A DNA stretch of 31,480 bases, from positions 1 through 31,480 of IMG/VR virus record IMGVR_UViG_3300009124_000060; one strand, 5' to 3'. The notes below the pieces were generated by a model. The model searched no databases. It saw only the letters and a list, made by a program, of their open reading frames with translations, and was not told where the DNA came from. Position numbers and translations under genes: made by a program. The stretch is from a virus. Shown piece after piece: positions 1 through 31,480 of this stretch. Each line of letters begins with the position of its first letter. The first letter of the stretch is position 1.

Positions 1-77
1 CCACAAGAACCCAAGTGGTCAGCAATCAACTGCATCTTAACGTACAACTGAGCAGCTCTAGCAGTAGAACCAGATAC
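1..77. repeat. Terminal direct repeat, copy 1, identical to 31404-31480. Either an assembly overlap from a circular contig or true terminal redundancy.
   Basis: I compared 1-77 with 31404-31480 base by base and all 77 nt match. The open reading frame continues across the junction. Confidence 0.95.
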
Positions 78-1019
78 ATTCTCAAAAGCAGAAAGAGCGA
101 AGTCAGCGTCTTTGTGCATACACAATTTGATAGCATCGAAGTTGATAAAGTAACCAGAAAGAGCAGCAGTAGTAGGTGCACTAGCAGTTTGGAATGATTG
201 TGATGTTACGTCAAAACCAAGTTCAAGGTCTTGCTCAACAACAGCACCACCGAATGCCAACTGCATTCTACCAGCGTCTAATGTTTTTTCATTAATATAT
301 CTTTCTTGTTGGAACAAGGCTCTACGATAGTTAGCCATAGCTTGTTCAGAAAGAAGTACAGTTTGGATTTCTCCCATAGGAGCAACAGATCCAGCCTTGA
401 TAGCAAGCTCTTGCATTTTTCTGATACCGTTAGTACCGAATGCACCTGAAGCTGTAACAGCTTGGTTACACCAACCAGTAGCATTTGGGTAATCTTGTTT
501 AGAGATTCCACCAACAGTGTTACCAGCCAACTTTTGTTGAGCTACAGTTTCTGCTTCCAAGAATCCACCAGAAACAGCACCGTTCAAAGTATTGAGGTTT
601 GTCAATACAGAGCTATCTCCTCTAAGAAGCTGGCGATTTATATTCTTCCTAAGCATCGTCATTACCGATCTCATACGTGCTTCAAGAATTTTAACAATCG
701 CTTTTTCCCCAGAATTTTCTAATTCTTCTCTCTTACTGATCACGATTGGAGCTACATAGTCTGCCCAGTCAAAAATAGCAGGTCTCATTACGTCTCTTAC
801 AGACATATCGATTCCTTCGTATCCAGAGCTGATTTGTGTTACTGTTGAATGTTCTTCCAATGCCAATGGGCGTTGAATTTTGATACCACCATCTTCGTAT
901 TCGATTCCACCAAATTTCTTGGCGTTATCTAAGAAGGCAGTCTTTTGAAATAGCTGATCGACTTCACCATCTCTAATGCTATAGAGGGTTGACGACAGCA
1001 GGTCATTTGAAATAGCCAT
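1..1019 (-). CDS. Major capsid protein, first 339 codons. The ORF runs off the left edge and finishes at 31403->31376, giving 348 aa in total.
   Basis: I translated it by hand from the ATG at 1019-1017 (MAISNDLLSSTLYSIRDGEVDQLF...YVKMQLIADHLGSCG) and met no stop before position 1. It is missing from the ORF track only because it crosses the window edge. It has an SD (GAGAGGAAAATTATTATG). It sits after the scaffold-like genes and before a decoration-like gene, and its size is typical of T7-type capsids. Confidence 0.75.
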   Translation of the reverse strand, partial: MAISNDLLSSTLYSIRDGEVDQLFQKTAFLDNAKKFGGIEYEDGGIKIQRPLALEEHSTVTQISSGYEGIDMSVRDVMRPAIFDWADYVAPIVISKREELENSGEKAIVKILEARMRSVMTMLRKNINRQLLRGDSSVLTNLNTLNGAVSGGFLEAETVAQQKLAGNTVGGISKQDYPNATGWCNQAVTASGAFGTNGIRKMQELAIKAGSVAPMGEIQTVLLSEQAMANYRRALFQQERYINEKTLDAGRMQLAFGGAVVEQDLELGFDVTSQSFQTASAPTTAALSGYFINFDAIKLCMHKDADFALSAFENVSGSTARAAQLYVKMQLIADHLGSC

Positions 1020-5983: not shown

Positions 5984-7492
5984 TTAGTATCTACGGTGTG
6001 CCTTTGTGCCTGCACCAGCTAATTCTTTAATTCTTTGTGCTTTTCTCTGTAGTATCCAATCTGGTAAATAAGCAGAATCCTTTAGCCTTACTGCATCTAA
6101 ACACCAACAAGCAAGAGCCAGTGCCATAGCCGAATCACTGTGACCTTCTTTAGAAGAATCTAAGAATTTAATTCTTCCTCTGTCATCTGTCTGTATCGTT
6201 CTCAGTTCAGCTGCAGTAGTGCTATCTAGTAAAGAGATCTTACCAGTTTGTATTTCTTTTTTTAATTTCTCGAACAGTAAGGGCTTGGACTTTGCAGTGG
6301 TAAGAAAGTCTTTTCCATCTTCTTTCCATATACGGCTACATCCTTGGTGGCCCAGTTCATTGATTGTTGCCAGTCCATAGTTGTTTGCTTCCACAAGTAC
6401 TAGGGCGGAATTATACTGTTCAGATATTTCAAAAATATATTCTGCTAACTGTATGGGTGTTACCTGATTAGATCTCCACATACACACTGGTACATTCATA
6501 CGCTTAGACATCACTGTAATTACGCTGTAGTCCCTTCCTACACCTCCACCTACGTCTACCCCTATGGCATACGCATCAGATTGGTCAGGCTCAGCTATGG
6601 TCAGCCATTCCTCTCCATCGTGTGTAATGATCTCACAGTCTTGGAAATCTTTAAAAGAAAAGTATGTATTCCCTACTATCCTGTATGCTTCTTCTAATGT
6701 AGTAGGATATTCTCTTGTAAATTTCTCTATCCCTAACTTACCTACTTTACGCCTACGCCAAGTAATCTGTTCTGGCGTTACACCACTTTTTACTAAAGAG
6801 GATTCATAGTCAGTTAGATCTTTGGCTGGTACCTCCGAAGTGTATTCCTCGTGTTCATACCAAGGAAAAAATAAATAATTCCATTGTGCTTGCTTTAGCT
6901 CGTAGGTCTTAATCTCTTTGTGCAGGCAGTCGTTGTAGTAGTTGGCTGTAGATTCTATTATAATTTGTCCATCATTTACTGCGGCTAATGCTGTAGCCTT
7001 TAGTTCTTCTGGGTCATCAGCGAACGCATATTCCGATATATGGATCTTTGTAGCTGTGAAGGAGCGTAACCCTCCCTGCTGTGTTGCAGCGGCTGCTATG
7101 ATGCGTCCTCCGCCTTCAAATGCAAGCTGTGTAGTATTGTCCACCTCAAGTGGACGCTGTAGTGCAGTGGGTAAAGAATAATAAAAGTTCTTGTGCATCT
7201 TCAGGATCTGCTTAGAGGATTCCAATTTATAACTTAAGATAGCATAAGTCACTGGTTCATCAGAGCGATAAGCTAAGGCAAACAGATAAGCTGACCAGAA
7301 GGTAGTGCTACCCATCTGTCTAGCTTTTAAAATTAAAATATCCTCACCAGTCTCTGCAGCTTCCAGCATACGTTTCTGTTCAGCATTGAGCTGAAACTGT
7401 TGTTGCTTTCCGTGCTTATTGATGATGGTAAGTTTCTCTATAAATTCTTCTAGCGGCATCTGCTGAATAATTTCTAAAAGTTCTTTGTCCAT
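5984..7492 (-). CDS. terL: Terminase large subunit.
   Basis: A Walker-A-like KARQMGSTTF lies near the N-terminus. Nuclease-domain signatures are present (GVDVGGGVGRDYSVITV ... HSDSAMALALA). Length is 502 aa. Confidence 0.88.
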   Translation of the reverse strand: MDKELLEIIQQMPLEEFIEKLTIINKHGKQQQFQLNAEQKRMLEAAETGEDILILKARQMGSTTFWSAYLFALAYRSDEPVTYAILSYKLESSKQILKMHKNFYYSLPTALQRPLEVDNTTQLAFEGGGRIIAAAATQQGGLRSFTATKIHISEYAFADDPEELKATALAAVNDGQIIIESTANYYNDCLHKEIKTYELKQAQWNYLFFPWYEHEEYTSEVPAKDLTDYESSLVKSGVTPEQITWRRRKVGKLGIEKFTREYPTTLEEAYRIVGNTYFSFKDFQDCEIITHDGEEWLTIAEPDQSDAYAIGVDVGGGVGRDYSVITVMSKRMNVPVCMWRSNQVTPIQLAEYIFEISEQYNSALVLVEANNYGLATINELGHQGCSRIWKEDGKDFLTTAKSKPLLFEKLKKEIQTGKISLLDSTTAAELRTIQTDDRGRIKFLDSSKEGHSDSAMALALACWCLDAVRLKDSAYLPDWILQRKAQRIKELAGAGTKAHRRY

Positions 7493-7767
7493 TATCCAGC
7501 CTTCTTTAACCAGTCCTTCACTTCATTAATCTGCTCTTTGCTATCCGCACCTTTTGCAGCATCTAACTTCTGCAGTGAATCTAACATTGATACGATGTGG
7601 TTACCAGAAAAGGTTTTAAGTTCTCCATCTTGCCTAAGTTCGTGTACAGAATGCGATAAGAAAGCCCAGTATAAATCTTCTAAAGATCTGTTTTCAACGG
7701 CCTTCTGGATGATTGTGGTAGTTTTCTTTGGTCTACCACCTAAGTTTTTTTGTTTAGAATTTGCCAT
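7492..7767 (-). CDS. Putative terminase small subunit or DNA-binding protein.
   Basis: 91 aa with a basic N-terminus (GGRPKKTT). Its stop overlaps the terL start (TAATG). Strong SD AGGAGG. Confidence 0.5.
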   Translation of the reverse strand: MANSKQKNLGGRPKKTTTIIQKAVENRSLEDLYWAFLSHSVHELRQDGELKTFSGNHIVSMLDSLQKLDAAKGADSKEQINEVKDWLKKAG

Positions 7768-7822
7768 AGTATCCTCCTGGTATAATAGGGTTAGGGCAAA
7801 GTTTTTAGTAAAAACCTTTCGT

Positions 7823-7849
7823 GTTCTCTACAGTATCGAGAATGTAAAA
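7823..7849 (-). promoter_or_regulatory. Motif C, copy 2: TTTTTACATTCTCGATACTGTAGAGAAC.
   Basis: Matches 15058-15085 at 22 of 28 positions without gaps. It lies just downstream of the terminator at 7846-7881 and upstream of the small terminase gene. Confidence 0.45.
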
Positions 7850-7881
7850 AAAGAGGCTGATAGCTCTTAACTACCAACCTC
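7846..7881 (-). terminator. Rho-independent terminator after the sigma-r4-like gene.
   Basis: An 11-bp stem (7853-7863 with 7871-7881). It is fully paired only in the minus-strand RNA, where two plus-strand mismatches become G-U pairs. A run of U7 follows (A7 at 7846-7852 on the plus strand). Confidence 0.75.
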
Positions 7882-7920
7882 TGAAAAAACCCATATGACG
7901 ATAGGATTTGTTTCTTCTCC

Positions 7921-8313
7921 TTATGTCCAGCTCTCCTTTAATTTCTTTATTATTCTTTCGTAATGATACTTGATGTTCTGTCTTGTGCAACCTAAGTCTC
8001 TTGCAATTGCTGCGTATGATCTTCCGTGTTCTAAATGCTGTCTTACTATGTACTGATCTTTTTGTTTTAATGATGCGATCATCTCTTCACCTAGCTTGAT
8101 GTTTGCTTCATAATCTACAGTATCGATTTCTTCTTCTACACCATCAAGTCTTCTTTCTATTTCATCTTCAAAATCTACAGTATCGTTTTGTGCATAGTCG
8201 AATAACCATTCTCTATCGCCGACATAAACATTTCTAAAAGTATTTGTTTTGATCTCTGGATGCTCTTTGTCTAGTTCATCCATTATCTTTTGCCATTTGC
8301 TATCAAGTTTCAT
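7921..8313 (-). CDS. Sigma-70 region-4-like HTH protein, a candidate phage transcription factor.
   Basis: The C-terminus LKQKDQYIVRQHLEHGRSYAAIARDLGCTRQNIKYHYERIIKKLK fits the sigma region 4/LuxR-type HTH pattern. No sigma region 2 is visible. Confidence 0.55.
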   Translation of the reverse strand: MKLDSKWQKIMDELDKEHPEIKTNTFRNVYVGDREWLFDYAQNDTVDFEDEIERRLDGVEEEIDTVDYEANIKLGEEMIASLKQKDQYIVRQHLEHGRSYAAIARDLGCTRQNIKYHYERIIKKLKESWT

Positions 8314-8337
8314 ATTACCTCCGTAGCTACTATATGT

Positions 8338-8365
8338 ATTCTAATTAGTAGATTCGAAGTGCAAA
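8338..8365 (-). promoter_or_regulatory. Sigma70-type promoter candidate, TTTGCA-16-TAGAAT, for the sigma-r4-like gene.
   Basis: On the minus strand, TTTGCA lies at 8365-8360 and TAGAAT at 8343-8338, with a 16-nt spacer. Confidence 0.35.
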
Positions 8366-8409
8366 AGTCCATTTTCTCCATAAAAAGTTGTTCCTAAAGT
8401 AATAATAAC

Positions 8410-8482
8410 TGGAAGGGCAGGTGGGATTCGAACCCACGGCTCTCTGGTTCGCGGCCCAAGAGATGATCCATCCAGCTGCCCC
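8410..8482 (-). tRNA. Atypical tRNA gene with an encoded CCA. The anticodon is probably GCG (Arg), but the isotype is uncertain.
   Basis: The minus strand reads GGGGCAG CT GGAT GGATC ATCT C TTGGG CCGCGAA CCAGA GAGCC GTGGG TTCGAAT CCCAC CTGCCCT T CCA. The acceptor stem has 7 bp and the T arm is canonical (GTGGG-TTCGAAT-CCCAC). The D loop has only 5 nt, the anticodon stem has one mismatch, and position 33 is C rather than U. Confidence 0.6.
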
Positions 8483-8485
8483 AGA

Positions 8486-8737
8486 TCAGATTCGTAGAAA
8501 GAATTTATGATCTGGTGTGACAGGTATCTCTGATTGAAAGTCTGTCTCGTAGTAATAGATTAAGTTTCCGTTTGGTTGCGGATGAGCTTGTATAGCAGAT
8601 ACAGGAAGTAGTCTTAGTCTCTCTCCACAGATATCCTCTACATAGATTTCCATATTAGCCATAAGCATTTTGGCGGCGGCCAAAAAAGAAACTTCTTGTA
8701 GTTGTACAGTTTCTATCTTGAAATCATTCCCTTCCAT
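8486..8737 (-). CDS. Hypothetical protein.
   Basis: 83 aa with an ATG start. It is translationally coupled to the upstream small ORF. No motif was recognised. Confidence 0.5.
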   Translation of the reverse strand: MEGNDFKIETVQLQEVSFLAAAKMLMANMEIYVEDICGERLRLLPVSAIQAHPQPNGNLIYYYETDFQSEIPVTPDHKFFLRI

Positions 8738-8885
8738 CTTCTTCTCCTCTGCTATCTCTAATGGCTTCTCTAGTCTTCCTATATACCATCAGTTGTAAAA
8801 CGTCATATACGCCCCAGGCAAACATACCCAGGGACATACAGCACATCATTAATATTAAAGTTCTAAAAGCTACATCAGCTAGCAT
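8724..8885 (-). CDS. Small hydrophobic protein (53 aa), absent from the ORF track.
   Basis: Translated by hand: MLADVAFRTLILMMCCMSLGMFAWGVYDVLQLMVYRKTREAIRDSRGEEDGRE. SD GGAGAG lies 4 nt upstream. One predicted TM segment. Its stop overlaps the next gene's start (ATGGAAGGGAATGA). Confidence 0.45.
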   Translation of the reverse strand: MLADVAFRTLILMMCCMSLGMFAWGVYDVLQLMVYRKTREAIRDSRGEEDGRE

Positions 8886-8895
8886 AGTTCTCTCC

Positions 8896-10167
8896 TTACC
8901 ACTGTGCCTTGATGACCAGTGGTGAATTCCAATTCTTTCTTCTAAATTCGTTAGATATAAGTCTCAACCTTGCAGGTGAGATCTTCTTGTTGATAATCAA
9001 ACCATCAAACTGGTATGACATTACTTCGTATCCTGCGTCAGCAAGTAGTTCTGCATACTTAGAAATTTTATAAGTTTCCATTCTGCAAAGCATTCTTGAC
9101 AACACCTTGTTCAGTTCTTTGTCTGTCAGTGATCCTGCAGTTCTTTCTTCATAGCCACAAAGGTTCTTGAATGAATCCAAGTTGTACATATACTTGGTCA
9201 ACTTAGCCTTTGCTCCTCTGTATTCTTTCATAGTCTCTTCGCCATATACAAAGTCAGCGTTCTTGTTCCCGAACAAGATCGCAAGATGCAACAGCTTTTT
9301 ACTAGAGAACTGTTCGTATCCTTTCTTAGCTCTGTAAGCATTGATCTTCTCTAAGTCTTTATCGGATACCCAAGACAAGATAGCATCTCTAGAATCTTTT
9401 CCTGAAAAAGTAAGCAGCAATTCTTTCTGTTCTTTAGTCAAGCCAGCCTTGAACCAGTGCGACTTAACCAAGTATTCGAAGTCACAGTTGTAAGAAGCCT
9501 TGGCATCGATGTCTACATAGCCAGTGTTCTTTAGTAAAAAGTCTCTAAGTCTAGAAGAAGCACCTTGTAGAGAAGCATCCATAGCGAATGCTCTTTCACC
9601 TTGCTTTCTGTATTCTGTCCACAGACAAGCATCATCGGGAGAGATGTTCAACTTCATAGCTTTTAAATATTCTTTATCGTGATCATTCAAACCGAGAGCT
9701 TCAATTTGTACTGCATCAGTGAATAGATCTTGTCTAAGTGGGCAAGCAGTAGAAGCTATACCAGTCTTAGCATTCAGTCTTTCAACAGCTACCTTCTTAT
9801 CTACAAAGAAACCAACAGGCAATTTGCACAGCTCATTGAATACTGTATTGATTGCGGCAAGATTTCTTTTGAAAGTTTTGCAGTAAGCACCTTGGCTATA
9901 GCTGTCACTAACGATCTCACCGAATGGACCGTAGTCTCTGTCGAAGTTCTTCTTGTAGTTTCTATCAAGAGAGATAGCAAACTGAGAAGAGAAGTAGGTG
10001 TATTCCCAAACCTGAAGTGTTCTGTGTTGTTGCTGGAACTTTAGTCTGGTTACAATTCTTTTTAATTTCTTAAGCCACTGGATTTCTCTAGTGCTGTAGT
10101 CTTCTTTCTTAAGAGAAGGATCAATGGTTAGATCGGTTGGATTGTCTTTGTATTGTAGTATCGTCAT
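8896..10167 (-). CDS. Divergent protein resembling a family A (Pol I/T7-like) polymerase domain, with no exonuclease domain.
   Basis: The motifs appear in canonical order. ERAFAMDASLQGAS (aa ~191-204) compares with GRLSSTDPNLQNIP. YVDIDAKASY (aa ~217-226) is motif-A-like. KKLLHLAILFGNKNADFVYG (aa ~290-309) compares with motif B K...NFG..YG. SYQFDGLII (aa ~384-392) compares with motif C QVHDE. Spacing is close to that of the Klenow polymerase domain. At 423 aa there is room for thumb, palm and fingers only. Confidence 0.45.
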   Translation of the reverse strand: MTILQYKDNPTDLTIDPSLKKEDYSTREIQWLKKLKRIVTRLKFQQQHRTLQVWEYTYFSSQFAISLDRNYKKNFDRDYGPFGEIVSDSYSQGAYCKTFKRNLAAINTVFNELCKLPVGFFVDKKVAVERLNAKTGIASTACPLRQDLFTDAVQIEALGLNDHDKEYLKAMKLNISPDDACLWTEYRKQGERAFAMDASLQGASSRLRDFLLKNTGYVDIDAKASYNCDFEYLVKSHWFKAGLTKEQKELLLTFSGKDSRDAILSWVSDKDLEKINAYRAKKGYEQFSSKKLLHLAILFGNKNADFVYGEETMKEYRGAKAKLTKYMYNLDSFKNLCGYEERTAGSLTDKELNKVLSRMLCRMETYKISKYAELLADAGYEVMSYQFDGLIINKKISPARLRLISNEFRRKNWNSPLVIKAQW

Positions 10168-10277
10168 AGTTACCTCGAAATGTAAAATGGGCAGTTGTGA
10201 TTGCCACTATTAGTATTATACCATATCGGAAAGGGTTTCGCTGAACTTTCTTCCCTCTATACTATATAGTCTTATTA

Positions 10278-10730
10278 TTAGCAGAAAGCCTTTAATTTCT
10301 TAAGTTTTTTTTCTGCATCGGACAATTTTTCGTAGTGTCCGTGGTAAGTTCTCTTACCCAAATGTCTCTCAGTAATTCTATATCTAGCATAGCCATTGTT
10401 ATTTACTAAAGAGATCTTGTACCTTGGGCTGCCATTGTTAAGAAGGTTTTCGCTTCTGGTTACAATTCTAAGATTAGAAACATTATTGTTTGTTCTGTCT
10501 CTGTCTATGTGATCTACGTGCAAGCCATCGTGTTCCCCAAAGTAAGCTAAAGCAACAAGCTTGTGTACGTGCCTAGTATATGCTTTGTTGTCTTTCATAA
10601 CCTGAACATACAGGTAGTTAGTCTTCTTGTTAACAGATTGCTTTAGTTCTCTCTGCTTGCTTCTTTTGTTAGAAATTATTCTTCCATCGTCTGTTGCGTA
10701 GTATCCAGGGAATCCTGCTATCTCTTTCAT
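10278..10730 (-). CDS. HNH homing endonuclease (NUMOD4 plus HNH_3 type).
   Basis: The N-terminus IAGFPGYYATDDGRIISN is NUMOD4-like, and HVDHIDRDRTNNNVSNLRIVTRSEN is an HNH motif. Confidence 0.88.
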   Translation of the reverse strand: MKEIAGFPGYYATDDGRIISNKRSKQRELKQSVNKKTNYLYVQVMKDNKAYTRHVHKLVALAYFGEHDGLHVDHIDRDRTNNNVSNLRIVTRSENLLNNGSPRYKISLVNNNGYARYRITERHLGKRTYHGHYEKLSDAEKKLKKLKAFC

Positions 10731-10883: not shown

Positions 10884-11040
10884 TTAGAGCTAGGAATAGC
10901 CGTAAGAATTTAAAGTTAGGAATACCCCCATACGACTTTATTTAAAGTTTGCCAATTCCTCCTTCTCAGATATCTTCTCATAGGTGTAGTAAGGTTAACC
11001 CAACTGTATCTTTACAAATTTAGTATGGTAGGGAGGACCT

Positions 11041-11424
11041 ATGCAGATTAATCTTCAGGCTAAACTAGATTCGATTGTATTACGTAGTGTAACGAGAGAC
11101 TTCTTTCCTCACGCTGTAATCACTTCAAAGGAAGAATATATAACCATTATGGAAGTAGAAACAACGGCAGAGGACTTAGTATCCTACACAGAGCTTATGA
11201 ATATGATCTGCCCTCCCGACATTTATATAGCTGTCATTGGTGAGGATCCTGATGAGCCTGCTTTCATTAGCTACAGGTATGGTGACATAGAAGAGATGAC
11301 AGTAGAGCAATTTGAGGAAGACAGAGAAGTCTTCCGTTTAGTTATCAAACCGCACAGCTTACCTTCAGAAGACGATAGTGTAGATTCTACACCCGAAGAT
11401 GATTCAGACTGGGATTGGATCTAA
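11041..11424 (+). CDS. Strongly acidic small protein of unknown function.
   Basis: 127 aa with about 31 D/E against about 8 K/R residues. The tail is acidic (EDDSVDSTPEDDSDWDWI). SD GGGAGG. It is the first gene of the short plus-strand block. Confidence 0.6.
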   Translation: MQINLQAKLDSIVLRSVTRDFFPHAVITSKEEYITIMEVETTAEDLVSYTELMNMICPPDIYIAVIGEDPDEPAFISYRYGDIEEMTVEQFEEDREVFRLVIKPHSLPSEDDSVDSTPEDDSDWDWI

Positions 11425-11453
11425 CCCAGCTTCCACACTTTTTAGTAAAAAGT

Positions 11454-11483
11454 TTTACCAGTCTATGAATACTTGCGTATAGT
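11454..11483 (+). promoter_or_regulatory. Sigma70-type promoter candidate TTTACC-18-TATAGT.
   Basis: TTTACC lies at 11454-11459 and TATAGT at 11478-11483. An AT-only palindrome, ACTTTTTAGTAAAAAGT (11437-11453), precedes it. Confidence 0.3.
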
Positions 11484-11521
11484 GTATGGGCAGCTGATGC
11501 TTAACTTACTACGGAGATATT

Positions 11522-11656
11522 ATGGAAAAAGAATTTATGCAGACAATCTACAAAGAACTTAAGGCACTTCCACAGCCAGTACAGGATGACAAGAGAGCTG
11601 TGGAAATGATCAGAATGTTAGAAGAAATGTTGAAAAAAGATAGCAAGGGGGCTTGA
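11522..11656 (+). CDS. Small hypothetical protein (44 aa), absent from the ORF track.
   Basis: Translated by hand: MEKEFMQTIYKELKALPQPVQDDKRAVEMIRMLEEMLKKDSKGA. SD GGAG lies 7 nt upstream of the ATG. Confidence 0.4.
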   Translation: MEKEFMQTIYKELKALPQPVQDDKRAVEMIRMLEEMLKKDSKGA

Positions 11657-11681
11657 TTTTCTTTTACATTAGGGGTATAAT
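11653..11681 (+). promoter_or_regulatory. Sigma70-type promoter TTGATT-17-TATAAT.
   Basis: TTGATT lies at 11653-11658 and a perfect TATAAT at 11676-11681, with a 17-nt spacer. No ORF follows before the terminator at 11746-11783. Confidence 0.5.
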
Positions 11682-11687
11682 GATAGT

Positions 11688-11783
11688 ACGGAAGTTGTGA
11701 GCCGTGTTATTCTCCTAAGAGATTATTAAAGTTAAGATTGTCTAAGGCCACAGGGTGTTACCTCCCCTGTGGTCTTTTTCTTT
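11688..11783 (+). ncRNA. Candidate small non-coding RNA of about 90 nt, defined by a promoter-terminator pair.
   Basis: It lies between the TATAAT at 11676-11681 and the terminator hairpin with its T-run at 11746-11783. The longest frame is about 10 codons. It contains CUCCUAAG, which is anti-SD-like. Confidence 0.35.
11746..11783 (+). terminator. Rho-independent terminator.
   Basis: A perfect 8-bp stem, CCACAGGG (11748-11755) with CCCTGTGG (11765-11772), and a 9-nt loop, followed by TCTTTTTCTTT. Confidence 0.7.
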
Positions 11784-12162
11784 ATATGACTTCTACGTCT
11801 ATCTTAAACTTCCACGTATCCTTCTCATATTCCTTCTTACCGTATATCTCTACGATCTGGCAGTCATCATCATAGACAATGCCTTCAAGGGCATCACAGA
11901 TACAGGAGAAGGTATTCTGTACATCTCTGCGAACCTTGTCTCCGAAGGTCACTGTAAGAATTAATCTGTATTTCTTGTCGGTAGGCCATATCACACAGGT
12001 AGCTGCTTCGTATTCCTGTCTAGCTTTGTCTGCTACTTCTTGTACGTAGGCTTCAAATTCCTTCACGTCTTTAGGTTTGTATGCCCTGCCGTGTCTTCTA
12101 GAGAATTTTAATTTGTTCTTTTTGCTCACTACCTTTCTGTAGCCTTCAATTTCTAGTTTCAT
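11782..12162 (-). CDS. rusA: RusA-like Holliday junction resolvase.
   Basis: RRDVQNTFSCICDALEGIVYDDDCQIVEI fits the RusA pattern (D..N..K...DAL.G....DD.QI). The track start at 12213 is a GTG. The ATG at 12162, preceded by GAGGA, is preferred (MKLEIEGY...). Confidence 0.6.
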   Translation of the reverse strand: MKLEIEGYRKVVSKKNKLKFSRRHGRAYKPKDVKEFEAYVQEVADKARQEYEAATCVIWPTDKKYRLILTVTFGDKVRRDVQNTFSCICDALEGIVYDDDCQIVEIYGKKEYEKDTWKFKIDVEVI

Positions 12163-12255
12163 CTTAGTGTCCTCACACATTACAGCAGATGTAAAGAACC
12201 ACTTAGTTGTCACTAAATGTAACTTTTATAAACTTTCTTTTACTTTCTTAGTCTT

Positions 12256-12284
12256 TTACTTGCAGTTTCTACTACTTATATAGT
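12256..12284 (+). promoter_or_regulatory. Sigma70-type promoter candidate TTACTT-17-TATAGT for the nuclease gene.
   Basis: TTACTT lies at 12256-12261 and TATAGT at 12279-12284, with a 17-nt spacer. Confidence 0.4.
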
Positions 12285-12354
12285 ATGGTTATGTAAGGGC
12301 AATAAAGCTCTTATGTACAATCTTTATAAAACTTTAGAAACGAGGTAAATAGAA

Positions 12355-12885
12355 ATGGGAAATTTTCACAGTAGTAACGACATAGGCTCTAAGTCTGAGA
12401 ATCAATTCAAACAAGAATATCTTCTTCCTTGGATGGAAGCAGGACACATTGACAAAGTATGGCACGTACCACACACTGAATTCAGAAAGCGTGGTTACAA
12501 GTATGACTGGGACTTTGTAGTTAAGATTGATGTTCTTGGTGCTTGTGAGCAAAGAAATATAGAAATGAAATCTTTAGCTGGTGGCTATCCTACTGGCGTT
12601 GTAGAGAAGTGGAAGTATGATGATAGAACTGGTAGAGCTGGTTGGTATCTGGCAACAGAGAAAGGTTTGTTGGATTACGTTATTGTTCACGACAGATCAG
12701 TAAATAAGTTTTACTTGTTCGATGCTCAACTTCTTAAGCAGCACGTAGACAATACTTCTCAGTGGGAAGAAAGACAATGCTACGATAAGAACACAGATGC
12801 TATGGGTTGGGTTGTTAAGTTCAGATGGACTGACAAGGATGCAGGATACATCTGCACATTAGATCCAGAAGTTTATTCTTTATAA
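12355..12885 (+). CDS. Putative PD-(D/E)xK-fold nuclease.
   Basis: YDWDFVVKIDVLGACEQRNIEMKSL gives a D...(E)xK arrangement, preceded by an N-terminal helix carrying a conserved Glu (GSKSENQFKQEYL). 176 aa. Confidence 0.4.
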   Translation: MGNFHSSNDIGSKSENQFKQEYLLPWMEAGHIDKVWHVPHTEFRKRGYKYDWDFVVKIDVLGACEQRNIEMKSLAGGYPTGVVEKWKYDDRTGRAGWYLATEKGLLDYVIVHDRSVNKFYLFDAQLLKQHVDNTSQWEERQCYDKNTDAMGWVVKFRWTDKDAGYICTLDPEVYSL

Positions 12886-12914: not shown

Positions 12915-12947
12915 AAAGCCATCTCTTTCGGGATGGCTTTTTTGTTT
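12915..12947 (+). terminator. Rho-independent terminator in the convergent gap. It may work in both directions.
   Basis: The stem is AAAGCCATCTC/GGGATGGCTTT around a TTTC loop, followed by TTTTTGTTT. An A-rich tract upstream could serve the minus strand. Confidence 0.7.
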
Positions 12948-15091: not shown

Positions 15092-18000
15092 TTATTGATC
15101 TCCTTTCTCAGCATCTTCTCTAGCCTTTTCTTCGATGGCTGCATCTCTTGTTCTTTCCAAAGACTTTAATCTTCTGATTTCTGCTTGTATAGCTTGGCGT
15201 CTAGAATACAAATTAAAGAGATCTTGCTTAGCTGCAGGTGTTACCCCTACAGGCTTCCCTACTACCCTCTCAGCTATGTTAAACGGTTCATAGGCACCAG
15301 TACCTGCCATAATCCTTGTAAGCTCTACAGGGACCCTTGACAGCCCTACAAAGTTAACAGCACCCATAAAGCCATTGAAGTTCTCAGCTTGCTTAGCATC
15401 CATAGGAAAAATATAATTCTTTCCGTTTATCTCAATACCTTTATCAGATGTAGTGATTGTAGGTGTTATTGTACCACCAGTAATAACTTGTATTGTCTGA
15501 GCGATATCGAATGGGTCTTGTGTGCCGTAGTAAGTCTGCACTAACTTAGTCCATTCTACAGGAACTTTATTGCTAGCTTTAAAATCTGATTCTAAATCTA
15601 AACCACCACGAACTACAGGAGATACCATTCTTCTTAGTGTCTCTTGTGTTTCATCAACAGGAGAAGCTATTAGCCCAGCTACCGACATCATCGCATCTAG
15701 CGTAGGTATAGCAGGTGTAGTCATATAGAAGTTTCTATCTTGTCCGTTGTGTACTGACAAGATGGTTCTGTTTAGTGTATAGTCTGGCATATAAACTTTC
15801 GGATCGAACTGCTTGTCATCGTTCATTGTGGTCATAAACCTTTCAACACCATTGTCCATCTTCAAGATGTTTGCAATTCTTTTTGCTTTTGCAGGCTCGC
15901 TTAAGTTCTTCACAAACGTAGTCATATTCTGTCTGTAGAAAGAATAAAAAACAAATGCTGTAGCAGCAAAGGCTTTCTCTGTTGGGTTCATATTGTTGTA
16001 GTCAAACATAGACTTTCTAGCCAACACAGTTGCTTCTTCTATGGATGCACCGTTCTTTAGGGCATCTTGCATTACCGCAGCCCTGAACACCATATCTTCA
16101 GCAATCATCAGTTCACCACCAACATCACCAATTCTAGCAAGAGGTCTTTGTACAAGTGCACCAGCCACTGCACCTTTTGGTCCAGCTACAGCTCCTCCGA
16201 CAGCAGCGGCGGTAGTGTTTCTAGACCAGTCTGTCATCCAGTTCATAGCTTCTTTGGACAGCCCTGTTCTTCTAGTATTGTTGTCTTCGATATATTTTAT
16301 TAAAGATCCGTCATTGATTGTACTAGTAATCATAGAGAATTCAGATCTAGCACCACCAGCATACACTGCTTTGTTCAGATCTCCGTAGGTATAGAGCCTA
16401 CCATCTGGTGTTTCTACTGCAATCTCATAGTATCTAGGAGCTGTTGGACTGTAAGCCTGCAGAGCCTTAACACCGTGCTTTACACCATTGGGACCTACAA
16501 TCTTACCTGTGGTCATATAAGTGATTGTAGAGGCTGTAGTAATGTTGTTCATATGGAACTGAGGGGCGTATGTAAGAACGCCCTTGTAGAAGATAGACAT
16601 TACCCCGTTCATAAAGTTAGATAAGCCTTTTAAAGTTTTATCTTTTAGGGACAAATCCTTTAGTAACTGGTCAAGCTGTCTAGATATCGGAGCAATTCTA
16701 CCTGATGCTAGTGCTTTGTTAAGTTCGTTGTATACAGTTTCACCCATATACAGTTTACCCATACGCTCATCTTTGAACAGTTGGTTAATGAAATCTGCAG
16801 CCTTGTCTGCGTCTGTATCAAATTTAGCCCACAAGTTATTATTTCTAATGATTTGATCACCTGCATCTGCTACGTATCTTTGGTATCTAGCAGCAAATGA
16901 CAGCTCTCTTTCTACGTATCCATACAGACCTTGGTTAGCTTGTTGCTGTTTAAGTTGCTCTACAGCTTGTTCAAATTCATCCCAGTTCTTAGCGTTAACC
17001 AAAGCAGCATTGTAGTTCTGTACACCGCCAGGTCCCATATTACCCAGTGTTCTTTGGATAGCACCGAGGTCTGCTCTTTCTGGTCTGTTGAAAGAATCTA
17101 AGATATAAGATTTTAAATCTGCTTCTAAGTAAGTCGATGGATCCATATTGGCGTTCTCTGCCATCTCTTCAAGCATAAACTGAGAAGCCATATCGCTTCT
17201 CATAGTGTCAATGAGATCATCAGTACCTGCTATAATTACATCTTCGTTTACAGCTCTTACAAGATGCTTGCTTACAATTCTATCACCCTCTGCCCAGTAG
17301 TACATACCCAGACTAACTTCATTCTGCATTGTATCTTTTAAAGAAGCAAACTTCTTTTCTATCATTCTATCTGTTACACCAGGTGCAAGTGACTTCTCAT
17401 CACCAAGAATCTTCACGTATTCTGTTATAAGTTCACTGAAGTTATCCCAGTATTTAGCTGGGTTCTCGTAAGTCTTAGCTACAAAAATCTCTACTACATC
17501 ATCCAACTGCTCTTTACCGAACTTAGATAAAAAAGTATTTCTTTGTGCTAGCTGGTTTAAGCCTACTACCCTGTCAGTTACAGATGTAGATTCCTTAACG
17601 TGATAGAACAATCTACCTAATGCCCAGTCTGCAGTGTCGTACAATCTGTTTAGTTGTATTGATGTCTGTACATCATCAGCTCTAATCTTATAAGCATCAG
17701 AAAGATTAGGAGATTCTATCACCCCAGTAGCGGCTTCTTCCGCTTCAGCAATTTTTCTTTTTGTTTGCTGTCTGAACAAATCAGATTCTTCTTTGTACTG
17801 AGCAGCCTTCTCTTCTCTGCTAGCTGTCTTCTCTGCTCTCAAGTCTTGTACAGCTTCATCGTAAGACTTTCTTACTTCACCTTTGTTGAAGTCTCTGATT
17901 GTAACCAGTTCTTTCTTTTCTACTTCAAGTGCATCTGCAAGTTCTGACTTTTTAGTAGAGAGAACTTCATCTGCTTGTTCTCTGGCTATCCTTATATTTT

Positions 18001-21000
18001 CTTTTCCACGAAGTTTTACTTGTTTTAAATCTGCTTTAGTGGCTTTTTTAAAATTAGATAATTCTTCTCTGGCATCACGCACTATATTACTAAAGCGATT
18101 GTTAACTTCGTTTAGGGCAACAGTTCTCTTTTGCTTAATGCTTCCTTTATACTTCTGCATTTCAGTTTTAAGTGCTGCAGCATCATCTGCAAAGTCTGCT
18201 CTGATCTGTGCAGTTTGTGCTTTGTAGCCCTCTCTAACGCTCGCTGCAGCGTCTTTCTTGGCTTGCCTTACTGCTTGCCTTACTGTGTCGAAAGAATCCC
18301 CTAGAGCTTGTCTGAAGGCTGCTTTCTGGTTTCTATTAGACCAGCCTAGTTGTGCACGAAAAGACCTAACATCAAAGTCTGCTTGACTAAGACCAGCTCT
18401 TCTTGCCATCTCTGTATCAAGCATATCATCAATTAAAGTTTGTAATTCTTCTCTACGTCCAGCATCATCAAGCCCATCCATTCTGGCAACCATATTGTCT
18501 AAGGCTTCTTCTCTAATCAAACCTATGGTTTCTTCGTATTCAGTTTCTACTTGTCTAACTGTATCATCAAACATCTCTGCAGCATCTTTCTGAGCTTGTC
18601 TGTATGAGCGTCTGTAGGCTTTCATAGCCTCAGACATATCATCAGCCTCGTCAAGGAATTCAATGTCGTCAGCATTCCTTATGCGGGCAAGTTCGTCAGT
18701 AACATCTATTTGAGCTTCTTCAAGTTCTAATTTCTTATTAGCCTTAAGTTCTTTATCTCTGGCTACGTAGGTAGCTTTGGTTTCATCATATGCTTGCTTA
18801 GCTTCTGCTTCAATCTTTTCTACTTTTGTTTTTCTAACTTCTTCTGCTTCAGCAATAGCTAACTTGTTGTTGTTCTCTAAGTCTTTCAGATCTTTTTCAG
18901 ATTGCTTTTGAACCTTCTCTATCTCTGCATCTCTAGTTTTCTTTGCATTATCTACAGCCTTTGCTCTTTCGGCTTCCAGTTTCCTAAGTGCAGCATTGTA
19001 ATCTGCTTGTGCTGCAGCCTTAGCTTCCGCTGTAGTAGCACTAAGAAGTTTTAATTTTTCATCTCTAACTTCTTGCTGTGCTGCTCTTGCTGACTTGAAT
19101 TCATCTTCAAGTGCTTTCTTAGATTCAGAGAACTGTTTTTGTGCATCAGCTCTAAGAGACCTTTCTTCTGCTCTAATGGCTTCCTTAGTCTCAGGAAGTT
19201 TTCTTTCCAATTCAACTTGCTCAAGTCTTCTTTGTCTAACTTCAGCTCTTTTAGATTCAGCCCAGTTTTGGTATTCAGTTGCGGATACTTGCTTAGTTCC
19301 TCCCTGTCCATCGGGTATGTGGAGCTGTGCAATCTCTGGTGATCTAGGCCCAACAATAGCAGCACCAAGGGCTTCTTCTGACGTAGGAATAACTTTAGGA
19401 TCTAAGCCATACAGCTCTCTTAATTCTTCTGCTTGTTTGCCTTTGCTTCTCAATCCGTCTATGGTATTTCTAAGCTGGATATCCATAGCTGAGGCTTCTT
19501 GTTTTACTTCCTCGAATAATCTACGCTGCTCAAAGGTAGCAGCGTCTGGTGTAGCTGTTTCAGGTACACTATTCTTTCTAGCTCTCTCTGCCATTTTTGC
19601 TATGTAATCTTTTCCTGATCCAAAGAATTCTACAAAGAAACCATCATCCCTTACACCTGGAGCATCAAGAAACTTTCTTTGCATCTTTGGTGGTAACTTA
19701 GAGATATCTGCTGTGGTGTATACCCCTCTTTGCAGATTCATAGCTGCATCGTCTATGGTCATACCCTTTAGTCTATTGAAATCTTCGAAGTACAACTTGC
19801 CATCTTTCAAGTTATCAAGAATGTTTCTGAATTCAATGTTACCCAATTTGTTCTGTGCTTTGGCATCAAAGAGCAGCATATTCAAAGCATCGGTATCTTC
19901 AGGTTCTAAATAGAAAAACTTTTGCGGCTTTGGTGCTTCAGCATACCCACCCAGTTCTGCCATCTGTGACTTTGATGCTGATATTCTCTCGGCATCAATA
20001 CCGATCTTTCTTGCAGGTACTACATCGCCTGCAAACACCCTACGTATGGGAGCTGTCCACTTACCAAAAACACCTTGTGTATCTATGGTTTGCTTTCTTC
20101 CGTGATAAATTTGAGAAAGATATTGTGATAGTGGAGATTTGTTTGCTTCTGCGTAAAGCTCAGCTTCTCTTGCTGGATGGGTAAAGGTCTTTCTGGTTAC
20201 TGCTTTTACACCATCTAAACCTCTTAGGCCAGGTGCTGCTTCAAAAACCGAAGACCTTGCGTAGTGATAGTCTACAAGTTTTTGTACATCTGCTAGTTCA
20301 TCACCACCCATTCTAGCAATTCTTGTTCCTCTGGATGTGGCAATCCTATCAAGCAATTCTTTATTTACCCTAGGGTTGTCTAGTAATGCTTGCTCAGCAA
20401 AGTCAAAGCCTTCGTCCGCTACTTCGTCAAGGTATCTTTGGGTAGCATCGTGTTCTAATTTGGATTGCTTTGCATTTCCAAACATTTTTTCGTCAACTGC
20501 TTTAGATGCTTCAGTTACGTCATCACCAGTTCTAGCAATGTGTTCATCTAGTAACTTAGCGTACTTAGTATCAGGGTTAGGAATCTGACCTTTAGCCGCA
20601 GTTCTAGAAGCCTCTAGTTCTCTGGCAGTCTTAGCACCTACAAGAGATCTGATATCTCCGTAATCATCAGTAGCTTTAATTACTTTCTTTGCTAGTGGCT
20701 TACCTACAATTGGCATATGTGTAATAAAGTTTACATCTTTTGCAAAAGCATTTAGTCCAGCACCACCTGCTGCTTTTAAAACTTCACCTACAGCCTTTGC
20801 GTCTGTAGAAGTATTTAGAACTTTTTGTGCTTTGTACATTTGACTACCGCCCTTGAGGGCTTTTGATCCAGCAATCAAAACACCAAAGTCTGGTGACAGA
20901 ATATCTCCAGCTAAACCACCACCAACAACTACAGCGGCTTGCCAACCTTCTAATCCAAGAGCGTTAGATACGTCTTGGAATTCACCTGTAAGCCCTTTGT

Positions 21001-31375: not shown

Positions 31376-31480
31376 TTAGTAAGTGTCTGCATTGAATAGA
31401 ACGCCACAAGAACCCAAGTGGTCAGCAATCAACTGCATCTTAACGTACAACTGAGCAGCTCTAGCAGTAGAACCAGATAC
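31376..31480 (-). CDS. 3' end of the major capsid gene. 31404-31480 duplicates 1-77. The unique tail at 31376-31403 encodes ...GVLFNADTY followed by a stop.
   Basis: The frame carries over from position 1: ...TCT TGT GG|C GTT CTA TTC AAT GCA GAC ACT TAC TAA, with the TAA at 31376-31378. Confidence 0.75.
   Translation of the reverse strand, partial: VSGSTARAAQLYVKMQLIADHLGSCGVLFNADTY
31404..31480. repeat. Terminal direct repeat, copy 2, identical to 1-77.
   Basis: Exact 77-nt identity with the window start. Confidence 0.95.

Follow-up and report, generated by a model that had tools for sequence, protein, structure and literature searches.

The 31,480-nt stretch of viral DNA analyzed here (IMG/VR record IMGVR_UViG_3300009124_000060, positions 1 to 31,480; hereafter the window) carries a minus-strand open reading frame (ORF, 8896..10167; ATG start, 423 amino acids [aa] plus stop codon) whose product, according to its predicted structure, has the right-hand Pol I fold and is an exonuclease-free relative of DNA polymerase I. 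Sequence conservation indicates that its catalytic residue set is intact, and its alignments place it in the TV-Pol family as a divergent new member, not as a new kind of polymerase. Considering all the analyses together, we regard it as most likely a self-priming DNA polymerase that begins phage replication. The position and length of the ORF agreed with the initial annotation, and the peptides quoted there and the numbering of D219, D221, and D388 proved correct.

The TV-Pol family was defined as the minimal core of the family A polymerases and is found in virophages, transposons, and some phages (Iyer, Abhiman and Aravind 2008, PMC2579912). According to the same study, its members have a two-helix antiparallel thumb N-terminal to a hairpin with an invariant Arg, an RNA recognition motif (RRM)-like palm with two metal-binding Asp residues, and fingers that form an insertion behind the first palm strand and carry a conserved Asp along with an RxxxK motif. 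They are nuclease-free and occur stand-alone, with an N-terminal domain, or with a D5-like helicase joined to them, Sputnik V13 being an example of the last form (PMC2579912).

Searches with the single protein gave little. Pfam returned noise only (E of at least 0.016); DNA_pol_A was matched neither by the target (E up to 10) nor by ten relatives (E up to 0.1), and RNA_pol was not matched by the target. The best PHROGs hit had an E value of 0.11, PDB sequences gave E values of at least 0.39, and NCBIfam gave nothing. Of 50,697 deposited phage genomes searched by tblastn, none matched the protein; megablast of the gene region likewise gave no match, and a related-locus search in IMG/VR and GTDB yielded zero relatives. 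A word-indexed search of 5.8 billion proteins recovered three relatives only, with identities of 100%, 78%, and 34%. With a profile of these three, an exhaustive HMMER search of 1.84 billion representatives found 14 relatives. The 15-sequence profile brought in no further homologues, and gave nothing significant when compared with curated libraries and PDB sequences.

Most of the 14 relatives are stand-alone proteins of 344-404 aa, and two are long. In the first of these, P0013 (792 aa), the homologous region covers residues 30-239, and behind it come Pfam D5_N and a helicase of the P4/D5 type with matches to vaccinia D5 and mpox E5. In the second, P0014 (738 aa), it precedes a helicase of the DUF5906/VapE-like kind, for which the matching PDB chains, 6k9c/6k9e, were deposited under the name 'Primase'. 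A hidden Markov model (HMM) built from the 13 stand-alone proteins scored P0013 and P0014 at 65 and 76 bits, and 400 shuffled controls reached at most 7.9. The P0013 gene lies at 6449-8827 of a 17-kb marine contig (L005) with genes for an A32-like packaging ATPase, a GIY-YIG protein, a ribonucleotide reductase small subunit, TAGT, and a phospholipase-like protein. This gene content indicates that P0013 comes from a eukaryotic virus-like element, and the contig looks like a fragment of a virophage, polinton-like virus, or giant virus. By these profile scores, sequence homology between the phage subfamily and the subfamily of eukaryotic viruses can be detected.

The structure predicted by AlphaFold with three sequences was poor (predicted local distance difference test [pLDDT] 49.6); with the 15-sequence alignment, pLDDT rose to 89.0, with a predicted template modeling (pTM) score of 0.86. 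The model consists of an alpha/beta domain of about aa 1-150, helices at 151-172, a hairpin at 181-195, a strand at 218-222, a helical insertion at 225-377, a hairpin at 382-392, a helix, and a last strand. When compared with the PDB by Foldseek, all 50 listed matches were family A DNA polymerases (KlenTaq, Klenow, Bst, and apicoplast Pol), with a probability of 0.99-1.00, E values from 2e-4, and template modeling (TM) scores of 0.31-0.40. A right-hand polymerase fold, whose absence had been named beforehand as refuting the polymerase assignment, was therefore what the search returned. In BFVD, the best match was a Zamilon virophage 'DNA replication protein' (6e-7), and other high matches included the Qinghai Lake virophage 'helicase/primase/polymerase' and proteins of Pyramimonas orientalis virus and Catovirus. 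Uncharacterized 400-550-aa proteins from uncultured tailed phages also ranked high, and ordinary phage Pol A proteins ranked lower. No archaeo-eukaryotic primase (AEP) and no RNA polymerase (RNAP) appeared among the listed PDB (50) and BFVD matches.

To the structural matches we can add a profile-profile alignment. A 37-sequence family profile, which drew on 31 added relatives of the helicase-fused subfamily, was aligned by hhalign with a Pol A profile made from E. coli Pol I, the T7 DNA polymerase, and eight phage Pol A domains. The alignment (E 2e-4) extended over 229 columns in collinear order and joined target residues 166-417 to residues 639-910 of Pol I. It paired R192 with R668, Q201 with Q677, K291 with K758, L295 with F762, F299-G300 with Y766-G767, and F387-D388-G389 with H881-D882-E883 (E. 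coli Pol I numbering). Thirty column-shuffled controls scored at most 16.2, against 38-41 for the real alignment. Together with conservation in the 37 homologues, this upheld the hairpin, motif A, and motif C assignments of the initial annotation. The corresponding hhalign comparison of the family with T7 RNAP was not significant.

Conservation was counted over 37 homologous sequences, with smaller denominators at some positions. R192, D221, and E364 are fully invariant (37/37 each), and D219 (36/37), Q201 (35/37), R208 (35/37), and K291 (35/36) are nearly so. At motif C, D388 is kept in 34/35 and G389 in 35/35. K420 is found in 29 of 31 and R358 in 29 of 37 sequences, and position 260 is Arg in 30 and Lys in 6. 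The canonical family A motifs (DYSQIELR; RxxxKxxxFGxxYG; HDE) are not found as such; motifs A and C each retain only their Asp, and motif B only K...[F]G. Relative to Pol I, the target has Y226 at the Glu gate, Leu at F762, and Gly at E883, in line with the earlier remark that the gate is not Glu and that the second carboxylate of motif C is Gly (Y226 and G389 here).

We then assigned these residues to the parts of the protein, all of which are encoded on the minus strand. The N-terminal accessory domain (aa 1-150, 9718..10167) is predicted from the model to be alpha/beta and, in the alignment, has conserved K46, H48, K97, and P143. It is missing from the helicase-fused homologues, which begin near aa 150, and its aa 61-150 align by hhalign with the N-terminal region of gp030 of cyanophage Ma-LMM01. 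No exonuclease site was found in aa 1-150, where no acidic column is conserved and nothing resembles the exonuclease domains of Pol I or T7, so the earlier claim that an exonuclease domain is absent holds. A vestigial 3'-5' exonuclease was considered for this domain and rejected, as the sequence gives it zero support. At the thumb position, a two-helix element (aa 151-172, 9652..9717), aligned to Pol I from 639, is predicted to form two short helices (151-159 and 162-172) N-terminal to the hairpin, for which antiparallel packing would be the expectation for a TV-Pol. The beta-hairpin and loop (aa 181-201, 9565..9627; strands 181-189 and 192-195) hold R192 (Klenow R668 by hhalign) and Q201 (Q677), both within the string GERAFAMDASLQG.

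The motif A strand (aa 217-226, 9490..9519; model strand 218-222) reads YVDIDAKASY and contains D219, D221, and Y226. From the spacing and the invariance, and not from the automatic alignment, we take D221 to be the equivalent of the catalytic D705 of Pol I, and Y226, five residues after it, to be that of the steric gate E710. Tyr or Phe steric gates occur in other polymerase families. The helical fingers insertion follows (aa 227-377, 9037..9489; helices 225-377), with R260, K291 (K758), L295 (F762), F299-G300 (Y766-G767), R358, and E364. Its motif B string, KKLLHLAILFG, holds K291, F299, and G300, and the conserved pattern is K291-x7-F299-G300, equivalent to K758-x7-Y766-G767. The motif B register first proposed, in which LFG stood for NFG and VYG for YG, therefore had to be abandoned; 'VYG' is kept in the closest relatives only. 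No conserved Asp was identified in the fingers, where R260 is the conserved residue instead. The motif C beta-hairpin (aa 382-392, 8992..9024; strands 382-386 and 389-392) includes the string YQFDG, with F387-D388-G389, and has D388 at the hairpin turn in the model. The C-terminal palm helix and strand (aa 398-423, 8899..8976; helix 398-411, strand 417-422) include K420 and the terminal aromatic W423, and the strand, SPLVIKAQW, resembles the C-terminus of Pol I, VPLLVEVGSGENWDQAH, as seen by comparison with the Pol I translation. The palm thus runs in the order beta (218-222), fingers, beta-hairpin (382-392), alpha, beta (417-422), which is RRM-like with two conserved Asp (D221 and D388). The invariant E364 and the Pol-I-like C-terminal strand were absent from the earlier reading.

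The DxD on a strand and the position of homologues N-terminal to D5_N/SF3 (superfamily 3) helicases raised a different assignment, an AEP/PrimPol primase in which DxD would be motif I and D388 would be motif III. We rejected this candidate after the fold search and motif analysis and give it almost no credence. There is zero AEP among the listed structural matches, H294, the candidate for motif II, is not conserved, and Pfam sees no AEP domain in the fused homologues. Nor is such an enzyme consistent with the hairpin Arg, the O-helix Lys, and the collinear alignment to Pol A. An AEP mis-assignment of Sputnik V13 was likewise corrected (PMC2579912).

TV-Pol membership can be examined in cyanophage Ma-LMM01, which was named as a carrier in a study that describes TV-Pols as typical of transposons (PMC2579912). 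Among the 195 ORFs of Ma-LMM01, our family HMM matched gp030 alone, at 41 bits (next best, 4.6). By hhalign, the family and gp030 aligned over 269 columns, with 95.1% probability and an E value of 3.2e-8, and the alignment took in a portion of the N-terminal domain. This 506-aa protein (L020, 22746-24266) is encoded beside two transposase genes. It shares with the target the Arg hairpin, a GLQG loop, the Asp corresponding to D221, the Lys, and the invariant Glu, and has 'HDG' as its motif C; at the D219 position it has Asn, so that only the Asp at the D221 position is kept there. The regular Pol A of Ma-LMM01 (gp178/gp180) was matched by the Pol A profile only, not by the family HMM. Because Ma-LMM01 is named in PMC2579912 and transposases adjoin gp030, gp030 is probably the TV-Pol reported for this phage in 2008. 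Given the shared features and the profile match, we filed the target as a TV-Pol. It has no exonuclease site and no helicase neighbor, and its homologues P0013 and P0014 are fused to helicases. As side observations, gp030 is labeled 'hypothetical protein' in RefSeq, and gp134, beside the second transposase pair, is annotated as 'putative DNA primase' and is not matched by the TV-Pol profile.

What would such a protein do in this phage? We put slightly better than even weight on a stand-alone TV-Pol that would act as a replication-initiating DNA polymerase, starting chains de novo or extending a 3' end with dNTPs. TV-Pols have been predicted to be primase-polymerases, a third kind of primase, because they replace AEP primases in situ before D5 helicases (PMC2579912). 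In the mechanism we propose, the polymerase, which would consist of a short thumb, an Arg beta-hairpin, an RRM palm (D221 and D388), small helical fingers with the O-helix K291, and the 150-aa accessory domain, would bind single-stranded or opened origin DNA. It would then initiate a DNA chain de novo, probably as a primase-polymerase, or elongate a 3' end, in either case from dNTPs. The host replisome would supply unwinding and bulk processive synthesis, and RusA, encoded upstream, would resolve branched replication or recombination intermediates before packaging.

Several findings weigh against this proposal. The TM-scores are modest, about 0.31-0.49 over PDB and BFVD. The Arg of RxxxK is not conserved, the residue four before K291 being F287, and most relatives have Asn at position 299. 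The TV-Pol of Ma-LMM01 adjoins transposases and is not the replicase of that phage. The target has no helicase linkage, which is the basis of the primase prediction. In CcPol of SCCmec, a partner, MP, that resembles SSB (a protein that binds single-stranded DNA) is needed, and no conserved partner ORF was found here. Finally, many ORFs in the window are orphans, so that a cryptic helicase or primase is possible.

The partner bears directly on an account in which the protein is a primer-dependent DNA polymerase only, extending invading 3' ends or filling gaps in recombination-dependent replication with RusA, with initiation and priming left to the host. CcPol-MP is a dNTP-using primase-polymerase whose primers can be extended by other polymerases, and CcPol by itself cannot prime and only extends primers (Bebel et al. 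2020, PMC7581432). Downstream of the target gene, ORFs of 83 and 53 aa have no family matches, and the one of 83 aa shows no relationship to the ORF of 86 aa that lies downstream of the L001 homologue; these small ORFs are not conserved, and a CcPol-MP-like partner gene has no support from them. A zinc finger, a helicase, and an SSB partner were likewise not found here, and RusA is the sole conserved neighbor, all of which would suit an enzyme that extends but does not start chains. However, homologous domains occupy the place of the AEP primase in D5/P4-type helicase fusions, and a phage this small that depended on the host replisome would profit little from a non-processive gap filler. We therefore rate the primer-dependent account as the less likely one, though worth keeping in view. 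A stronger version of the initiator proposal, that the protein of about 423 aa alone is a full primase-polymerase and the sole replication enzyme encoded by the phage, seems rather doubtful to us. In it, the domain with K46, H48, and K97 may hold the initiating nucleotide or single-stranded DNA, replacing the SSB partner of CcPol; that these residues could stand in for the SSB-like partner is speculation.

Turning to the genome, the first and last 77 bases of the window (1-77 and 31404-31480) are identical, and this exact overlap indicates a circular assembly, 31,403 bp long, that represents the complete genome. The minus strand carries nearly all of the genes. The recognizable ones encode a major head protein, a scaffold, a portal/adaptor, a large terminase (TerL), an amidase, a holin, a sigma-70 region-4 protein, an HNH endonuclease, and RusA. 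TerL is at most 29% identical to that of any deposited phage. The major head gene (348 aa; 1019..1 joined to 31403..31376, minus strand; PHROG 9953, E 2e-22) crosses the junction and does not appear in linear ORF lists. Neither a helicase, primase, SSB, or RNAP nor a second DNA polymerase was detected in Pfam, PHROGs, and PDB-sequence scans of about 35 larger ORFs; in these scans, the target is the only polymerase-like gene, as had been stated initially, among many orphan ORFs.

The conserved upstream neighbor of the polymerase gene is a RusA-like Holliday junction resolvase (11782..12213, minus strand; PHROG 140/34), and RusA lies directly upstream of the polymerase homologues in three related loci (L001, L002, and L009). 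In the window, an HNH endonuclease gene (10278..10730, minus strand; PHROG 59, E 7e-30) sits between RusA and the polymerase gene and is not there in the relatives. In L001 and L009, RusA and the polymerase gene are adjacent, and the insertion that separates them here is what a homing endonuclease would be expected to produce. HNH genes were observed beside or near the polymerase gene in three unrelated contexts, namely the window, L006 (2044-2676), and L011 (7797-8267).

These HNH genes, the frequency of TV-Pols in transposons, and the transposases next to gp030 would agree with a polymerase that replicates a selfish passenger element (as in Ma-LMM01 or SCCmec) and is not encoded by a replication gene of the phage. 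Yet no transposase, integrase, or resolvase was detected among the window genes in the same library scans, and the order RusA, polymerase, sigma-70 region 4, TerL, portal is retained in a relative whose polymerase is only 34% identical, as expected for a core gene. A passenger origin is, in our judgment, improbable.

We also considered whether the product might be RNA. The initial annotation had left open a small replicase or a transcriptase. An RNA polymerase, either a transcriptase or a primase that makes RNA primers, could be imagined from a gate residue that is not Glu and from the DG of motif C. In addition, TV-Pols have been proposed as the minimal, possibly ancestral, core of Pol I and T7-type RNAPs and would, on that proposal, resemble an ancestor with both activities (PMC2579912). 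Against this, there is zero RNAP among the 50 listed PDB matches, and the profile match to T7 RNAP is not significant. The bulky Tyr at the gate and the Phe in place of Tyr at the Y639 position also oppose it, as does the preference of CcPol-MP for dNTPs.

The transcription signals gave a similar answer. T7-like promoter motifs, which had been reported for this genome, were not reproduced: there is no conserved promoter-length repeat, and a direct-repeat search of the window gave low-identity matches only, none with T7-type conservation. Sigma-70-like sites numbered 26, about the same frequency as in shuffled sequence (20.2 +/- 4.1). The expression signals of the polymerase gene (10173..10223, minus strand), read from the sequence and by consensus match, comprise a GAGG Shine-Dalgarno at 10173-10176, 5 nt 5' of the start codon, and a candidate extended -10, TGGTATAAT, at 10215-10223, about 45 nt upstream of the gene. 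The sigma-70 region-4-only protein (130 aa; 7921-8313, minus strand; Pfam Sigma70_r4_2, E 4.5e-8) has its gene immediately upstream of those for terminase, and L001 has a conserved counterpart; it may serve to activate late genes or to appropriate host RNAP. This protein and the sigma-70-type elements point to the use of host RNAP by the genome and make a transcriptase unlikely. We thus hold RNA synthesis by the polymerase to be very improbable. DNA synthesis is favored, since the structural neighbors are DNA polymerases only, the gate carries the bulky Y226, F299 occupies the Y766/Y639 position, and CcPol-MP prefers dNTPs. The structural reading of the initial annotation is thus upheld, and its transcriptase alternative is unlikely.

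Some further features of the window were recorded. The sigma-70 region-4 gene holds an internal 24-nt repeat (8106-8129 and 8166-8189). In the 311-nt intergenic region from the HNH gene to the plus-strand block, repeats lie within 10884-10949: a pair of 18-nt direct repeats, TTAGAGCTAGGAATAGCC and TTAAAGTTAGGAATACCC, that are 26 nt apart, and ATTTAAAGTT, present twice, 32 nt apart. These could be iterons or operators, marking a candidate origin or regulatory site, or chance matches. The plus-strand island (11041-12885) stands in an otherwise minus-strand genome, and a bidirectional terminator-like hairpin lies at 12915-12940. Within the island are a gene for a very acidic 127-aa protein ending in ...EDDSDWDWI (11041-11424, plus strand; no family match), which could be a DNA mimic or bear an SSB-like tail, and a 176-aa orphan (12355-12885, plus strand). 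A 2492-aa orphan ORF (15092-22570, minus strand), rich in Ala, Glu, Leu, and Lys, takes up about 24% of the genome and lies among tail-like genes. It had no Pfam, PHROGs, or PDB-sequence match and no DxDGD or P-loop motif. We considered it as a hidden RNAP and rejected this for want of a profile or PDB match and of DxDGD; its product is probably a virion or ejection protein.

As of 2020, the atypical CcPol was the only TV-Pol to have been tested biochemically (PMC7581432), and we found no further TV-Pol biochemistry in literature later than 2020. Being small and stand-alone, with a conserved catalytic set and a very simple genome around it, the target is a convenient test case. It could be used to ask whether priming is within the reach of a bare Pol A core, what determines sugar selectivity when the Glu gate is lacking, and how replication of a small tailed phage proceeds with one polymerase and RusA. 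Its polymerase core of about 270 aa could also serve enzyme engineering. If the protein were indeed the sole primase-polymerase of the phage, it would be the smallest Pol A-type replicative initiator known. The known polymerase categories are unchanged by it.

Finally, we compared the target with four known systems. The Klenow/KlenTaq Pol I domain gave the best structural matches in the PDB and has collinear equivalents at R668, Q677, D705, K758, Y766-G767, and D882. Unlike Pol I, the target has a core (about aa 150-423) of about 270 aa instead of about 400, and neither a 3'-5' nor a 5'-3' nuclease domain. CcPol-MP (PMC7581432; Rice 2023, PMC10061031) is alike in that CcPol is an exonuclease-free A-family polymerase from a mobile element and is grouped with the TV-Pols. 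However, CcPol is near enough to Pol I to be annotated as such and retains the sugar-discriminating residues of Pol I, neither of which is true of the target, and an adjacent OB (oligonucleotide/oligosaccharide-binding)-fold MP protein and an operon helicase belong to CcPol, neither of them found at the target. The TVpol-SF3 proteins of virophages and polinton-like viruses (Zamilon and Qinghai Lake virophage; bioRxiv 10.64898/2026.06.19.733378), which include the best BFVD matches, are homologous to the target via P0013/P0014; they carry D5_N and an SF3 helicase in one chain and lack the 150-aa N-terminal domain.

The closest comparison is with TV-Pol itself, represented by the N-terminal domain of Sputnik V13, in its published description, and by gp030. 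Here the minimal nuclease-free Pol A core, the hairpin Arg, the two palm Asp residues, and the finger Lys are alike. The 'xDG' motif C and the invariant Glu are found in gp030 as well, and forms that stand alone or bear an N-terminal domain, as well as D5-helicase-fused forms, occur in one homologous family; both the target and these TV-Pols are found in viruses. The target differs in having no RxxxK Arg and an extra Asp, D219, two residues before the catalytic one. Its N-terminal domain is predicted to be alpha/beta, whereas TV-PolN is predicted to be all-helical. And with no linked helicase, transposase, or resolvase, it is apparently the sole replication enzyme of a small tailed phage.

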